From a virus (Duplodnaviria > Heunggongvirae > Uroviricota > Caudoviricetes), in the IMG/VR virus record IMGVR_UViG_651053023_000013, positions 1 through 13,199 of that record: a DNA stretch of 13,199 bases; one strand, 5' to 3'. Shown one piece after another: positions 475 to 11,918 of this stretch. Below the pieces are notes generated by a model. It saw only the letters and a program-made list of their open reading frames with translations, searched no databases and had not been told where the DNA came from. Position 1 is the stretch's first letter. Each line of letters opens with the position of its first letter. Both the position numbers and the translations under genes were made by a program.

Positions 475-627
475 GCGGGTTATGCGGGTTAGCGGGTTAT
501 CTTCGCGTGCTAAGTATTTTTTATTCTTTAATATCAATGCGTTAAAAAATGATATGTTTGAATATTAGCCAAAACGTAACCCGCAAGACATTCAAAATAA
601 CCCGCAAATACCCCCCAAATAACCCAC
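475..627. repeat. Origin-like iteron module A: three abutting GCGGGTTAT copies, AT-rich spacer, three inverted ATAACCC(G/A)C copies at 21-22 bp phasing
   Basis: Direct copies at 475-483, 484-491, 492-500; AT-rich 501-574; inverted copies at 577-584, 597-605, 619-627. Same 9-mer and mirror-image layout as module B at 9640-9771. Confidence 0.6.
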
Positions 628-915
628 AACCCCATCAGGAAAATGGGGCCAGTGATGCCACCGAACGGCTGAATCTGGTAACGTTCTGTTGCCTGGTTGC
701 AGTTTGCGGGTCAGCAATACTGACGCACAAAGTTAGCCGTATGTGGCTGTGCGTCCACCAGCTACGCCGGAATGGGGTATTCCGTTTCAACGGAACAGGT
801 ATGACGAATATGATCGCACCTTCTCCCGAAAACGGGTTTGCCTGTTTCGGGAAAACGGGCACATGAAGCTGCATAGACATTTTCACTATTCAGGATCTGG
901 CGGGGGAGTTTCTCA

Positions 916-3796: not shown

Positions 3797-4210
3797 TTAC
3801 GGTGTGCCGCCCGTTCTTCCTGCTCGCGATACATGACCCGCCTTACGGTTCGCTTTCGTGGCTGGATCTTCCCGTGTCGTCTTACGGTTGTGGCACGTCT
3901 GGCACAATGCCTGGTGATTCCACTCAGGCCAGAAGAGAACATCACCGCCGCCATTGATGGGAATGATGTGATCCACCACAAGAGCTGGCGTATAAATCCC
4001 CTTAGCCAGACAACGCACGCATAACGGGTTTTTGCTCAGGTACAGGGCGCGGTATTTGTCCCACTGTCGGGAATACCCGCGCGCGCGGCGGTGTCCCCGT
4101 CTGGCATCCTCTGCACGCCATGCAGCCCGCCTGTGCTCTTCACACTTTCCGGACTTCACGCGCTTATTACAGCCCGGCTCAGTGCAGCGCCTTAATGGTT
4201 GCCACGGCAT
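3797..4210 (-). CDS. HNH endonuclease (packaging-associated)
   Basis: N-terminal Cys cluster CTEPGCNKRVKSGKCEEH, then HNH core VVDHIIPINGGGD ... WNHQALCQTCHNRKT. ATG at 4208-4210 overlaps the adaptor stop (ATGA). Confidence 0.9.
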   Translation of the reverse strand: MPWQPLRRCTEPGCNKRVKSGKCEEHRRAAWRAEDARRGHRRARGYSRQWDKYRALYLSKNPLCVRCLAKGIYTPALVVDHIIPINGGGDVLFWPEWNHQALCQTCHNRKTTREDPATKANRKAGHVSRAGRTGGTP

Positions 4211-4509
4211 CAGTACACCCCCACATCACGATAAACCGACCAGAGCGCAGAAATAGCCATAGGCAGTTCAGACTGCTCCACAGGTGAAACCGCTTCCCTG
4301 TTCTCGTACAGGAAAGCGATGTACATCAGGCAACCAACACGTATTGCCGGGGTAAATTCCAGCCCGTCTTCAAAACGTTTCCCGATATGCTTCTGGCAGG
4401 CTTCCAGCGCCGCATCGGTATACATTTTCAGAAGTTCGCCTTCTCCGGAAAAGTCATCAAGGCGAAGATGTGCCCTGACTTCATCAGGTGTAATTTTGTC
4501 TTCACTCAT
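4210..4509 (-). CDS. Head-tail adaptor/connector protein (HK97 gp6-like)
   Basis: MSEDKITPDEVRAHLRLDD...AIRVGCLMYIAFLYENRE matches the gp6-like pattern. ATG at 4507-4509 has an AGGTG Shine-Dalgarno and overlaps the portal stop by 8 nt. The tracked ORF start at 4596 is a GTG lying 95 nt inside the portal gene and is rejected. Confidence 0.7.
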   Translation of the reverse strand: MSEDKITPDEVRAHLRLDDFSGEGELLKMYTDAALEACQKHIGKRFEDGLEFTPAIRVGCLMYIAFLYENREAVSPVEQSELPMAISALWSVYRDVGVY

Positions 4510-5716
4510 CTTTTTCACCTTTAATTTCCACAGTCTGCTTCCATGCCTGGCTGAACTCGTCGCCACCTTCACGCGGCGGCATTCCCTCACGCTCACGGGC
4601 TTCGTTCGGATTCATGATCCCGTTCTTAATCCCTTTCTCATACGTGGCGTAACGTTCAGTAGGTGTGGCGCGCAGTAAATCGGCTGAATCAAACTCAACC
4701 AGATAACGGGTACCAGGTACGGGAGAAGCCACCAGCAAAGCGGCCTTGATTTGCTGTTCGAAGTTCGCCAGCCACGGACGCATTGTCATAGTCAGAAACG
4801 CGCGGCTTGCCTCACTGAAATTGCTGTAGGTGCTGTTGCTGTATTCCTGCAGAAAAATCGGCGACACGTTGAACATCCGGGCGATGTCTTCAATGGAGAA
4901 GCGACGGGAGGCCAGCCATTCCGCATCCTGGTTACTCATCCCCAGTTGCTTGTAATCCATGCCCCCTTCAAGGATTGGCGTTTTTCCGGCATTTTTCGCC
5001 CCCTTGTAGCGTTCCAGTGCGTCTAATGCCTGTTTACCTTTCACGCCGTCCAGCCATTCGCCTGACGTGATAATCCCTGCCGCCATCATGCCATCTTTCA
5101 TAATGCTGGCTCCGTGACGCTGTTGAGCAAGGCCAAGCCCCAGCGCCTCACGGCAAATCGTGATGGGGGAGCGTCCCAGAAAGCCATCATCCGAGGCATA
5201 GCGGAGATGCAGAACTTCTTCCTGTAAATACGTGCGCACCGTTCCTGTACAGGGTTCGGTGATGGTATAGCGGTATTTGTGTGCGCCTGTGCGTTCCGGT
5301 ACAACACACCCCGGCGCATAAGGATGAAGTGATTTTGGCTGACCGTCCCGCCCCCATTCAATAACCGCATAGGCGTTACCGTTCAGCAGGCAGTGACGCA
5401 TCATTGTGCGTTTAAACTGGTAAGGTGTCTGGCACGAATTAGGCTGCTCATTCAGCAGAATATCTACCGGATGACTGTCCAGCCATTCCCGCGCCTCCCT
5501 GCCCTTGTCATTACGTACCAGATACAGATAACACGGCATCGTGGCCACCGCCTCAGCGATGACGGAAACCGCGTTCATCACTGCGGGCAATGATTCAGCC
5601 GTCCCGGCAGAAACATATTCTCCGGATCCGGTATTCGGTACGCCGGACAGCACCAGAAAATCATCAATGGACAGGTTACGTTGCTCGCTTTTTTTACGAC
5701 TAAAAGGCCACCACAT
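4502..5716 (-). CDS. Portal protein (HK97 family)
   Basis: About 405 aa from ATG at 5714-5716 (MWWPFSRKK...), which follows the protease stop by one base (TGA-T-ATG). The longer tracked ORF begins at a TTG inside the protease gene. Confidence 0.85.
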   Translation of the reverse strand: MWWPFSRKKSEQRNLSIDDFLVLSGVPNTGSGEYVSAGTAESLPAVMNAVSVIAEAVATMPCYLYLVRNDKGREAREWLDSHPVDILLNEQPNSCQTPYQFKRTMMRHCLLNGNAYAVIEWGRDGQPKSLHPYAPGCVVPERTGAHKYRYTITEPCTGTVRTYLQEEVLHLRYASDDGFLGRSPITICREALGLGLAQQRHGASIMKDGMMAAGIITSGEWLDGVKGKQALDALERYKGAKNAGKTPILEGGMDYKQLGMSNQDAEWLASRRFSIEDIARMFNVSPIFLQEYSNSTYSNFSEASRAFLTMTMRPWLANFEQQIKAALLVASPVPGTRYLVEFDSADLLRATPTERYATYEKGIKNGIMNPNEAREREGMPPREGGDEFSQAWKQTVEIKGEKDE

Positions 5717-7788: not shown

Positions 7789-8295
7789 ATGAATTTAAGC
7801 GCAATGGTATACCCTGATACTTTCATAATTAATGGCGAATCATTTAAAGGTAAAAGAAACGCAAAAGAAAACAAGGTATTAATTCCATATACAAATGAAC
7901 CGGAAGTAACTATTGGTCAACACATTATCCAGTGTGTCGGTAAAAACGAGATAAATCTAAAAATTATAGATATGAAGTTGCTTCCCAATGGAACCCTCAG
8001 ACAGGGAACCAACCATCCAAATATGTTGACGCTCTATATTGAAAATATCACGGGAAATGAACATATGACGCCACCTAAAAGTAATACATTTAACATTGGT
8101 TCAATTAGTGGTAATCAAGTGCAGATAGGTGAGCATAACCATATGCTGGTAAACATCAGCATCACTGAACTGGTTGAAAAAGTCTCTAAATCGGGGGATG
8201 TACAAGCCAAATCAGTATTAAAGCAGTTACTGGAAAACAGTACCGTTGCCAGCATTGTTGGGGCTGGCGCAAGTGCCTTAATAGGCTTACTGTAA
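7789..8295 (+). CDS. Unrecognised 168-aa protein with C-terminal hydrophobic glycine-zipper segment; AT-rich accessory gene (moron)
   Basis: Only credible plus-strand gene inside the island. Roughly one-third GC by eye against about half in neighbouring genes. Own promoter, ribosome-binding site and terminator. C-terminal ...NSTVASIVGAGASALIGLL is a likely membrane anchor. Internal NIGSISGNQVQIGEHNH is not assignable from memory. Confidence 0.7.
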   Translation: MNLSAMVYPDTFIINGESFKGKRNAKENKVLIPYTNEPEVTIGQHIIQCVGKNEINLKIIDMKLLPNGTLRQGTNHPNMLTLYIENITGNEHMTPPKSNTFNIGSISGNQVQIGEHNHMLVNISITELVEKVSKSGDVQAKSVLKQLLENSTVASIVGAGASALIGLL

Positions 8296-8303
8296 AAAAA
8301 TGA

Positions 8304-8320
8304 CCTGGAGAAAATCCAGG
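8304..8320. terminator. Bidirectional intrinsic terminator between convergent genes
   Basis: Stem CCTGGA (8304-8309), loop gaaaa, stem TCCAGG (8315-8320). On the minus strand it is followed by T7 (complement of A7 at 8294-8300); on the plus strand by an interrupted T-rich run. Confidence 0.5.
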
Positions 8321-8331
8321 CCTTTATCGCT

Positions 8332-8580
8332 TTATTGTTTCACTGGATCCCGCATTCTGCGTCTTATTTTCCACAGATATTCGATCATCGCTTCCACCTG
8401 CTCACGATTGGTTGCGAAAATTTCCCCGGTCAGTGAGCTGCGCAGAAAATCATGATGATCCACAACAAACAACGCATCGGAAGAAAGCAGACGGCGATAT
8501 TTTTTTGCTGTCGTGGTTTCCAGATCATCAAAACCATGAAACTTTTTATGTTGCTGGACTTCTTCAAATGTCACTGGCAT
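8332..8580 (-). CDS. Hypothetical protein (82 aa), translationally coupled to the ProQ/FinO-like gene
   Basis: ATG at 8578-8580 overlaps the stop of the upstream ORF by 10 nt; no recognisable motif. Confidence 0.45.
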   Translation of the reverse strand: MPVTFEEVQQHKKFHGFDDLETTTAKKYRRLLSSDALFVVDHHDFLRSSLTGEIFATNREQVEAMIEYLWKIRRRMRDPVKQ

Positions 8581-9149: not shown

Positions 9150-9575
9150 TTAAAACGGTATGTTATCCCCGTACAGGTCATCGTGCTGGCCTGTCTGTTG
9201 TTTTGCCCTGTTCAGTGCGTCAGTGGCCTGCCCCTGTTGGCCTTTTTTGCCGCCCGGTCGCGCCGTTCTCGCACTGATTACGCTGTCTGCGATGACCTGC
9301 CAGCCCTGCCGCGTTTCGCCGTTCTGCCCTGTCCACTGGCTTACCTGCATGTTACCCGCCACGTTCACCAGTTCGCCTTTGCGGTGTTTTGCCAGTGCGT
9401 CGGCCTGTCTGCCAAACGCCAGGACGGATAACCACATCGTCGCCGTTCCGTCATCTGCCTGGCTGCATGGCAGGGGAACCGCCATACTCGCCATCGCCAT
9501 TTGTGTTCCCTTGCTGGTGGTCTTTAACTGCGGGTCAGCCACCAGCCGCCCGTAAGCCGCTATCTGTGCTGTCAT
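9150..9575 (-). CDS. ssb: Single-stranded DNA-binding protein (short, divergent SSB)
   Basis: 141 aa; OB-fold-like N-terminal pattern (GRLVADPQL ... WLSVLAFGRQADALAKHRKGELVNVAGNMQVSQWTGQNGETRQGWQVIADSV), Gly/Gln-rich linker and acidic tail ending DDLYGDNIPF (compare DDDIPF in E. coli SSB). Confidence 0.75.
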   Translation of the reverse strand: MTAQIAAYGRLVADPQLKTTSKGTQMAMASMAVPLPCSQADDGTATMWLSVLAFGRQADALAKHRKGELVNVAGNMQVSQWTGQNGETRQGWQVIADSVISARTARPGGKKGQQGQATDALNRAKQQTGQHDDLYGDNIPF

Positions 9576-9639
9576 GCTGTCTGCTCTCCGGTTTTAACGT
9601 TGATGGTTACGCTTGTTTACACCCTTACGGTGAAATTCT

Positions 9640-9771
9640 GCGGGTTATAATCGCACTTTTGCGGGTTATAACTGCCGTTTTGCGGGTTACGTGCGGGTTA
9701 TTGATTTCCTTTTTATTCATACAGTTAATGCACTTATATACATGATAACCCGCATAACCCGCATAACCCGC
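9640..9771. repeat. Origin-like iteron module B: four GCGGGTTA(T/C) copies at 21/21/11 bp phasing, AT-rich spacer, three abutting ATAACCCGC copies; immediately downstream of the primase-helicase gene
   Basis: Direct copies at 9640-9648, 9661-9669, 9682-9690, 9693-9701; AT-rich 9702-9744; inverted copies at 9745-9753, 9754-9762, 9763-9771. The primase stop is at 9795-9797. Confidence 0.7.
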
Positions 9772-9794
9772 AACTTTTCACCTCACACAGGGGG

Positions 9795-11918
9795 TTAATC
9801 TTCTGCCTCAGGCTGGAACATCAGCACGTAAAAAACATGCTGCTTCCCCCCAATTTTGCCGAGCGCCTTTTTCTTGTAACGGCGATCGTTACCCGCTTCC
9901 AGCATTCCGGCAGCACTCAACGCGCGGGCAAAGTGAGACGGATTAAATCCCTGTGCTATCTCACCCTCAAATACATGCGGGAACGTGTAAAAACGGAACT
10001 CGTCATCTTCGTTTCTGATACTCCCCTTTCTGTATCCGGCAAGCTCTTTAATCGGTAAATCACGCTCGTCGGTGTTGGGCCACGGAAGGTATCTGCTGAA
10101 TCCGAACGACGCTAAAAAAGCCTCTGCCTGTTCAACCATCTGTTTAAACTCCCTGTTACCCGTGCCGAACTCCTTCACCCAGGCATTAAAATTATGCTGA
10201 ATGGCATCGCGGCACGCCTGAACATCCCAACCAGTAATATGGACGGAAAGCACCAGCGCCGACTCCAGCATGGCGAATCGTTCCCCCACACGGTGAACCT
10301 GTTCGCCGTAACTCTCCGGTATCAGGTTGCGCCACCGTTCACGGCATGCCCTTACCGTATCCTTTGCCTCCTGCTGGTGGTCTGCCAGCCATTTAACCCA
10401 TTCACGCCCCGCCGCCCCGTGATTTTCTGTCCAGGCATCCTTTAACGCGTCTGCGTGTGCCTTTCCGGTGCTGTATTCGTGAAACTGCGTGGCTTTTTCC
10501 ATTGGCACGTTAAGCAGGCGGACAAGCTGCCCCGCCTTGACTTTTATCCCCTCCGTTTTGAGGAATGTCTCAACGTCCATTTCTCCGGTGCTGATTGCCA
10601 CCGTGCGCCAGTGTTTGATCTCCCTGTTGCCGCCGTCCTTCGCCCCCTGTAATTTCCCCGAACCGTTAAACAGCGTATAAGCCGACGTGGACACTTCCCG
10701 CGCGTTTCCGGCCTGACCTATTTCATCCAGGGGTAATAGCCCGTCATTGTGCGCCTCTGCCTCGTTGGCGATGCCTAACGCTGTACCGTACCAGGTCAGC
10801 CGTTGCGCGTCCGGCTCTCCCCATAAACTGGATGCGATGTTCTGTGTGGTGGTTTTCCCTGCCGATGACTGTTCGAAAAGATGTACCCCGAAGCCGTCAG
10901 CACCCACCAGCCCGATTAATGGTGCGGATAACGATACCGCCACACCCAGCATCATGGACGGATTACCACCAGCCAGCCGCGCAACGATATCGCGCCAGCC
11001 CTCCGCCGTTCCTGCCACGGAATAGCCATTAACAGCAGCCGTTTTTCCGGTAAACAGGACTGGCTTTTCGCAATCACCAATGACCGAACCGTCCGGCATG
11101 ATGTACGCGCCAAAATGCCAGCCCGTTGTTGTGCTTAACTGCCATTCCTCATGGCTTCCGCTTAACTGCATCCAGTCAGCCAGGATAGCCCTGTATTTAC
11201 CGTTGGTTGTTACGTTCAGTCCGTGGTCTTTCAGCAACCGCCAGCCGTCACGGTCGCCAATGCCACCGCACGGAACCGCCATTGTGATGACTTCATGGTT
11301 TGCTAATTTTTTCCAGCGCATCACGCGGTAATGCTCTTTACCGATTGTCCCCGTTCCCAGTAGTTCAAGCGGGGAACATAACCACGTCTCAGGCCGGATA
11401 ATTTCGCCTGACTGCTTATCCACTTTTGGCGTTACCCAGAAAACACCATCGGCGCGACTTTCAACGCGGGGCTTTAATTCATCATCGCCCTGGATTTCTG
11501 TGATTTTTTTCTTTAAGGGCAACACCAGACTTTCCCCGCGCTCGTATTCGTCTTTGAGGCGAGGCAACTGGTCGGATAAATCCGCCGGGCTGATGTCAGT
11601 TATCCCCGCGTATTCGTATACGGTCTTCACGCCAGCCACAGCCAGCAACGTGACGATCTGTGTAAGGCTACGTTCAGTGATGTGCCCTGCGCGGTAAACA
11701 CGCACACACTGACGGCTATCATCAATAATTTGATAACCGGTAATATCTTTCAGGTGTTCATCTGACAGAACGACAGGCGGCACATTGTCGGCGGCAATAT
11801 GCTTACCTGCCCATTCCTGCCACTCTTTCGCATGGCTCCACGCATCACTACCCGCAAAGATGATAACCTCCGTCATTTTGTCGGCTGGCTGGTGCTTTAA
11901 GTTTGGTGCGCGCTTCAT
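9795..11918 (-). CDS. Replication initiator: Toprim-like primase N-terminus plus DUF927/SF3-type helicase-like domain
   Basis: 707 aa; P-loop FEQSSAGKTTTQNIASSLWG and Walker B-like LLPLDEIGQAG; N-terminal region resembles a Toprim primase fold. ATG at 11916-11918 overlaps the upstream stop (ATGA). The iteron module follows directly. Confidence 0.8.
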   Translation of the reverse strand: MKRAPNLKHQPADKMTEVIIFAGSDAWSHAKEWQEWAGKHIAADNVPPVVLSDEHLKDITGYQIIDDSRQCVRVYRAGHITERSLTQIVTLLAVAGVKTVYEYAGITDISPADLSDQLPRLKDEYERGESLVLPLKKKITEIQGDDELKPRVESRADGVFWVTPKVDKQSGEIIRPETWLCSPLELLGTGTIGKEHYRVMRWKKLANHEVITMAVPCGGIGDRDGWRLLKDHGLNVTTNGKYRAILADWMQLSGSHEEWQLSTTTGWHFGAYIMPDGSVIGDCEKPVLFTGKTAAVNGYSVAGTAEGWRDIVARLAGGNPSMMLGVAVSLSAPLIGLVGADGFGVHLFEQSSAGKTTTQNIASSLWGEPDAQRLTWYGTALGIANEAEAHNDGLLPLDEIGQAGNAREVSTSAYTLFNGSGKLQGAKDGGNREIKHWRTVAISTGEMDVETFLKTEGIKVKAGQLVRLLNVPMEKATQFHEYSTGKAHADALKDAWTENHGAAGREWVKWLADHQQEAKDTVRACRERWRNLIPESYGEQVHRVGERFAMLESALVLSVHITGWDVQACRDAIQHNFNAWVKEFGTGNREFKQMVEQAEAFLASFGFSRYLPWPNTDERDLPIKELAGYRKGSIRNEDDEFRFYTFPHVFEGEIAQGFNPSHFARALSAAGMLEAGNDRRYKKKALGKIGGKQHVFYVLMFQPEAED

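Follow-up and report, generated by a model that had tools for sequence, protein, structure and literature searches.

Where does replication of a capsid-forming PICI (cf-PICI) of Escherichia coli begin, and what marks the place? The question is raised by a dense array of short repeats, at positions 9640–9771, which directly follows the replication gene in a 13,199-nt stretch of a viral record (IMG/VR IMGVR_UViG_651053023_000013; this whole stretch is called the window here). The first-pass annotation had taken the array for an iteron origin of PICI type behind a primase-helicase gene. The preprints on cf-PICIs that were consulted do not describe the origin, and the word "iteron" is absent from them. 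The locus offers a concrete candidate origin for the enterobacterial PICIs and cf-PICIs that carry a DUF927-type Rep, a replication module so far undissected.

The host island

The window covers one end of an E. coli island that resembles capsid-forming PICIs. According to Pfam, its minus-strand genes encode a DUF4222 protein, a 707-aa DUF927 protein (Rep), a single-stranded DNA-binding protein (SSB), a ProQ/FinO protein, an HK97-type capsid protein, a portal protein and the large terminase subunit TerL; the integrase of the element is located beyond the right end. A 98% identical island annotated in RefSeq (L001; E. coli GPT24-02, NZ_OZ282453.1) adds a protease, a head-tail connector, an HNH protein, TerS, an Icd-like protein, regulators and a tyrosine integrase, while tail genes are not found in its RefSeq annotation. 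Window domains and L001 annotation together give the set by which a cf-PICI is recognized, that is, integrase, regulators, rep and its own capsid and packaging genes, with no tail genes. The sole opposite-strand gene of the window (7789–8295, plus strand; 168 aa) belongs to PHROG 5789; a distant cf-PICI (L052) has an ORF of 168 aa at 7937–8443 in like position and orientation.

The repeat array downstream of rep

The rep gene occupies 9795–11918 on the minus strand, so that 23 nt (9772–9794) lie between the last repeat and the stop codon, which fits the 24 bp given by the first-pass annotation, and the array is found directly 3′ of the putative initiator gene. Distal to rep, four copies of GCGGGTTAY are present on the plus strand (9640–9701), pointing away from rep, namely GCGGGTTAT at 9640, 9661 and 9693 and GCGGGTTAC at 9682; their start-to-start distances are 21, 21 and 11 nt. 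They are followed by a 43-bp spacer (9702–9744; 74% A+T), a candidate melting region, and by three head-to-tail copies of ATAACCCGC (9745–9771; starts at 9745, 9754 and 9763, period 9), which are inverted relative to the spaced array. This anatomy had been described correctly to the base before. SaPI origins have an AT-rich centre flanked on either side by two or more iterons, those of one side being oriented opposite to those of the other; the helicase loads itself there, and SaPI Reps bind the iterons directly 3′ of rep via a C-terminal winged helix (PMC9371898, PMC7581432); here, oppositely pointing iterons flank the AT-rich region as four on one side and three on the other.

The repeats are far from a chance occurrence: in 200 dinucleotide-preserving shuffles the expectation for exact GCGGGTTAY is 0.20 matches (maximum 2), but the window has 11, and these copies are confined to two clusters, with seven in 9640–9771 and four in 475–605. 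Neither cluster contains a DnaA box (even with a relaxed pattern), a 13-mer DUE or a GATC site; with no DnaA box, and with an initiator that is a helicase and not a RepA-type protein, the locus does not have the makings of a DnaA-dependent iteron-plasmid origin. A promoter and terminator scan of 9500–9900 called no site, and a tRNA scan found none.

Two minor points concern the array itself. The abutting 9-mer is present in three copies in the window (9745–9771) and in two in most relatives, including 99% identical ones, which suggests that the copy-number difference arose by slippage. An ORF overlapping the array on the plus strand (9389–9745) was considered and rejected as spurious; it is antisense to ssb and unannotated in RefSeq relatives.

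Rep and its C-terminal domain

Rep belongs to the DUF927 helicase-initiators, the family of SaPIbov1 Rep and SCCmec Cch. In a full-length search Pfam reports DUF927 (E 5.9e-46) and no other family, and NCBIfam gives one weak match, Cch helicase. Among PDB sequences (phmmer) the SaPIbov1 replication initiator-helicase (8tch_A, E 8.8e-14) and also SCCmec Cch (5dgk) are matched. Foldseek with an AlphaFold model of Rep returned 5dgk (best) and 8tch as the sole significant matches, with E about 1e-9; the full-length model has a mean pLDDT of 59, with the ATPase core and the C-terminus below 50, and it served for this family match only. A tblastn search of a phage collection with Rep matched SaPIpT1028, and P4 was absent from the matches. 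Zn-ribbon, Toprim and D5 domains were found neither by Pfam nor by NCBIfam. Since the homology is to DUF927 proteins and a primase domain goes undetected, the protein is to be addressed as a Rep helicase-initiator, and the "primase" in the earlier label is unsupported. Judged by homology, then, the array would be served by a self-loading helicase of the SaPI Rep type, the kind of initiator that a SaPI-like origin calls for.

The C-terminal ~120 residues, encoded by 9795–10160 (minus strand) next to the array, likely form a winged HTH domain for iteron recognition. By themselves, the last 121 residues match a single Pfam family, HTH_56 ("Cch HTH domain"), with an E of 5.8e-4, which is below the Pfam cut-off; among 14 C-terminal variants, six match the same family, the best with an E of 2.9e-5. 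A profile of the Rep C-terminus gave no match among PDB sequences, and the AF2 model of the domain (pLDDT 47) was left out of the fold search.

The other end of the protein is variable too. The N-terminal ~160 residues (codons at 11439–11918) are a swapped module, with 42–100% identity among proteins in which the core is 94–99% identical; the module has no Pfam match and models as a small alpha/beta domain (pLDDT 65–87). In a 909-aa relative (L074), Zn_Ribbon_Prim and Toprim_3 stand in front of DUF927, that is, a true Zn-ribbon and Toprim primase takes the position of this module.

Iteron classes among relatives

For comparison, 80 IMG/VR loci with a Rep 57–99% identical to that of the window were used. 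A dense repeat array directly follows rep in every related locus with enough downstream sequence, and the repeat word falls into six classes: GCGGGTTA, the class of the window (37 loci), GAACCAAC (28 loci), GGGACAAC (seven loci), GTGGGTTA (four loci), TGGGAYAA (three loci) and CGTGGTTC (one locus). A contig from an E. coli EDL933 host, which is probably the prototype cf-PICI, has GTGGGTTA iterons. Within a class, the same base changes are found in every copy, that is, the copies change in concert, while the spacers drift.

Whatever the word, the layout is common to all six classes and can be written as > 9 > 53/65 < 11 < 21 < 21 < ... > 21 > 51-93 < 9 < (arrowheads, copies and their direction; numbers, distances in nt). 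The rep-proximal part consists in all classes of two or three abutting copies with a period of 9, an AT-rich spacer, and inverted copies spaced 11, 21 and 21; to this, most loci add a fifth inverted copy and then two forward copies 21 nt apart, which a second AT-rich spacer separates from two or three inverted copies that abut. The start-to-start distance across the spacer is 53 nt in the two GYGGGTTA classes and 63–65 nt in the others.

It is with the last ~110 residues of Rep, a probable Cch-type HTH, that the iteron class varies, and not with the helicase core. Within the GCGGGTTA class these residues are 89–100% identical to those of the window, even where the N-terminal 160 residues are as little as 42% identical; in the GGGACAAC class they are 47% identical while the core is at 82–97%; and in the GTGGGTTA class, the word of which differs by one base, they are 67–69% identical with a core at 74–75%. 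The pattern is that of natural domain swaps, as SaPI biology predicts, and it makes the Rep C-terminus a candidate for recognition of the iterons; because the iterons adjoin the codons of the C-terminus, the association could partly be linkage in mosaic recombination. The swaps provide a candidate specificity map, with six iteron classes and a putative determinant of ~110 residues, which might be used for typing of satellite incompatibility or to build orthogonal Rep/ori pairs.

A second unit at the island end

The module at 9640–9771 (unit 1) does not stand alone. A second cluster, absent from the first-pass annotation, is located at 475–627 (unit 2) and contains, besides four exact copies in 475–605, one-mismatch copies at 484 and 619. 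An abutting array (475–500) is made up of GCGGGTTAT at 475, GCGGGTTAG at 484 and GCGGGTTAT at 492; it is followed by a 75-bp spacer of 73% A+T (501–575) and by a spaced array on the minus strand (576–627) with copies at 576, 597 and 619, that is, with spacings of 21 and 22, the third being degenerate (GTGGGTTAT). Unit 2 is a mirror image of unit 1, and it, too, has opposed iterons, three and three, around an AT-rich spacer; each unit alone fits the published definition of a SaPI origin. These sequences are present in roughly 180–230 complete E. coli genomes. The earlier proposal of a PICI-type iteron origin is thus supported by position, anatomy and comparison as far as its nature is concerned, while 9640–9771 turns out not to be the whole module. 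No 30-mer duplex of the window is less stable than one in the spacer of unit 2, with which only one at 7950 ties. The spacer also has a match to the IHF consensus at 532–544, and its block adjoining the abutting array is shared by two iteron classes as a conserved feature.

About 10 bp beyond the last iteron of unit 2 lies a near-palindromic motif, GTTTTGTATATATA(A/C)GAAAA, at 448–471, and nearly all iteron classes have conserved it. Where the two units of a relative are adjacent, the first downstream gene directly follows this motif; in the window the motif faces the island end, and it would read towards attP and int after excision. A consensus promoter scan made no call on it. On the other side, a terminator-like hairpin (627–651, minus strand) closes the terL-side operon just before unit 2, which has no gene downstream and lies just beyond terL, about 350 bp or less from the island end. 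Bases 1–95 belong to the core chromosome (found in 5424 of 5426 E. coli genomes), so that the island must end no more than a few hundred bases from the second cluster.

Several features of the island end may be added. Bases 1–95 are annotated as a riboswitch in RefSeq, on which Rfam makes no call because the window edge cuts it. The DNA at 96–440 is specific to the integration site of the window; it contains a tandem AACTGACCACAC repeat at 162–186, three CCGTTATC-like motifs at 258–320, which are possible arm sites for an integrase or excisionase, and long G and C runs at 385–440. In L001 the large-terminase gene of a prophage is split by the island (4038–4781 and 19824–20852); there, homology to the window starts near 415, and the integrase differs from that of the window's element. 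About 770 bp between terL and unit 2 (window ~650–1450), including an ORF at 1191–1475 (PHROG 1561), are apparently missing from L001.

Split and contiguous units

In most relatives the two mirror-image units are side by side, ~310 bp in all, and are followed by the conserved near-palindrome, GTTTTGTATATATACGAAAA, and then by the next gene; the contig from the EDL933 host is of this contiguous form. In the lineage of the window the units are split, with ~9 kb between them that reach from ssb to terL and include proQ and the head and packaging genes. The junction can be located at 9620–9639: past the fourth spaced copy, similarity to the contiguous form breaks off at once, between 9636 and 9637, where in rep orientation TAACCCGCAGA|ATTTCACC (..|ATTTCAC) is read and the ssb leader follows.

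The split form is found in every related locus that reaches beyond terL, and it persists where the surroundings have changed. In L001, which sits inside a prophage terL and has another integrase, unit 2 is kept at the island end. The same holds for L084 (E. coli SCU-105, NZ_CP051738.1), a non-capsid PICI located at tRNA-Gly, in which 10.5 kb with other cargo separate the two units. Across split-form loci the iterons of unit 2 are invariant and the spacer varies. Because unit 2 is retained in three integration contexts (window, L001 and L084) with different cargo, the comparison argues that it is functional. Unit 2 may be dispensable for initiation, since L074 has a single unit, with no second one in the 19 kb retrieved from the rep-downstream side (excluding the last 2.5 kb of the contig). 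A distant second unit of another iteron class, which would set recognition apart from linkage, was sought in L074 and L108 and likewise not found over the 19 kb retrieved. In two further loci (L019 and L020) the right unit is reduced.

It is between the two units that cargo varies in the lineage of the window. In L084, which has the same Rep and iterons, three large hypothetical genes (843, 686 and 918 aa) lie there, at 11241–18588; they replace the capsid and packaging module and may be defence cargo.

Proposed function

We consider 9640–9771 to be a Rep-dependent replication origin unit of the cf-PICI and put the probability of this at roughly 80%. The way in which it could work is modelled on the homologous SaPI Rep. 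Once the island has been induced and excised, the C-terminal winged-HTH domain of Rep would bind the 9-bp iterons that flank the AT-rich spacer, three abutting ones on the rep side and four phased ones (11/21/21) on the other; Rep would then melt the spacer at 9702–9744 without DnaA (neither unit contains DnaA boxes or GATC sites); finally, it would load itself as a hexameric helicase, whereupon host replication proteins would take over.

We expect Rep to bind unit 2 as well as unit 1. Unit 2 may be a second origin, a helper that assists unit 1 through DNA looping in the manner of P4 crr and R6K gamma, or a copy-number limiter. A bolder idea, which we put forward tentatively and hold to be rather doubtful, is that the two units constitute a split origin bracketing exchangeable cargo, with Rep cooperating over 9–10 kb, either by looping or by placing one helicase per fork direction. 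In such an arrangement, which to our knowledge has not been described for PICIs, excision would bring unit 2 and the near-palindrome to a position just upstream of attP and int, and replication, possibly also transcription, would be coupled to the circular form. The layout poses the question of whether a self-loading helicase of the SaPI type can use origin units 9–10 kb apart.

It is less likely by far that the repeats are mainly a transcriptional operator or a copy-control site, which would govern transcription that runs on past rep into ssb and the late genes, or would handcuff copies, and not a start site. Plasmid iteron arrays serve both initiation and control, unit 1 lies between rep and ssb and has no terminator- or promoter-like site of its own, and in relatives with adjacent units, unit 2 and the near-palindrome are directly upstream of the next operon, all of which would suit such a role. 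Yet what defines the origins of SaPIs and PICIs is this very layout, in which the gene of a self-loading helicase-initiator is directly followed by inverted arrays with an AT-rich spacer between them (PMC9371898, PMC6092414), and no other iteron/AT-rich candidate origin is seen in the window beyond the two units; a control function would add to the origin role but would not replace it.

Still less probable is that the inverted repeats act, without binding of Rep, as a hairpin in RNA (attenuation, processing, stability) or single-stranded DNA, or as a cruciform. The predicted fold is indeed strong, with −66 kcal/mol as RNA and −38 kcal/mol as DNA (z = −5.9 and −6.2; none of 200 shuffles as stable), complementarity in the split lineage runs past the iterons (GGTGAAA/TTTCACC), and concerted change of all copies would preserve pairing as well. 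But any origin with inverted iterons yields such a fold, and a hairpin does not need the 11/21/21 helical phasing of direct copies with non-complementary spacers, which is kept in six classes; moreover, the same iterons recur in unit 2, which comes after a terminator-like hairpin and has no gene downstream, and Rfam matched no family over the whole window. That the clusters are packaging (cos/pac) or site-specific recombination sites, as the proximity of unit 2 to terL and to the island end might suggest, is hardly credible, for the same iterons and layout occur in L021 and L084 without capsid or terminase genes and together with three different integration sites, and the repeat class tracks Rep, not integrase or terminase.

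Comparison with known systems

The origins of SaPIbov1 and SaPI1 are a close model for the candidate origin: there, as here, the origin is directly 3′ of rep, opposed short iterons surround an AT-rich centre, Rep is a homologous DUF927 protein and DnaA boxes are lacking. The differences are the length of the iterons (9 bp here, 5–6 bp in SaPIs), the Gram-negative host, the presence of two mirror units, 9 kb apart, instead of one, and that no separate or fused primase is recognized here. SCCmec Cch, the best Foldseek match (5dgk), is a DUF927 MCM-like helicase with a C-terminal HTH (HTH_56), and Rep shares the DUF927 family and probably the HTH with it. Unlike the island, however, SCCmec is a staphylococcal cassette, and the putative origin there is ill-defined.

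For E. coli PICIs the same origin organization has been reported, and the rep-ori of EcCICFT073 was tested, in a study that also mentions P4 ori and crr (PMC6092414). EcCICFT073 is from the same host species, has the same island order (int, Icd-like, DUF4222, rep, ori, ssb), and its rep is followed by iteron groups in both orientations, which are within a 290-bp gap. Its origin is the only experimentally tested one of an E. coli PICI, but it belongs to another Rep family: the EcCICFT073 Rep is a D5_N/DUF5906/Pox_D5 protein, with 28% identity to the Rep studied here in the N-terminal half only, and its iterons, all in one place, are of the unrelated GTCTACC type.

Two further systems offer parallels to the layout. 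P4, an enterobacterial satellite, replicates by means of a multifunctional initiator-helicase, alpha, which has a C-terminal origin-binding domain, and it has the same iterons at two cis sites, ori and crr, several kb apart, both of which were shown to be required. In layout this resembles the two regions found here that have the same iterons kilobases apart (475–627 and 9640–9771, or 10.5 kb in the case of L084). P4, however, uses TGTTCACC as its iteron, and instead of a mirror-image origin unit its crr is built of direct 120-bp repeats; alpha combines a Zn-ribbon/Toprim primase and a D5-type helicase in one protein, unlike Rep, which is DUF927 only, shows no similarity to P4 by tblastn and hence is not an initiator of the P4 type. 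In R6K (gamma, alpha and beta origins), the iteron-bound initiator acts on distant origins by DNA looping, which is a precedent for the way in which a split origin could work. The R6K initiator, a winged-helix protein of the RepA/pi type, has no sequence relationship to Rep; it needs DnaA and DnaB of the host, whereas a self-loading helicase is of another kind. Taken together, the array is very probably a replication origin of a known kind, that of SaPIs and PICIs, and as such an ordinary feature of these satellites, while the split, mirror-image layout is, as read from the loci compared, a modest architectural novelty.
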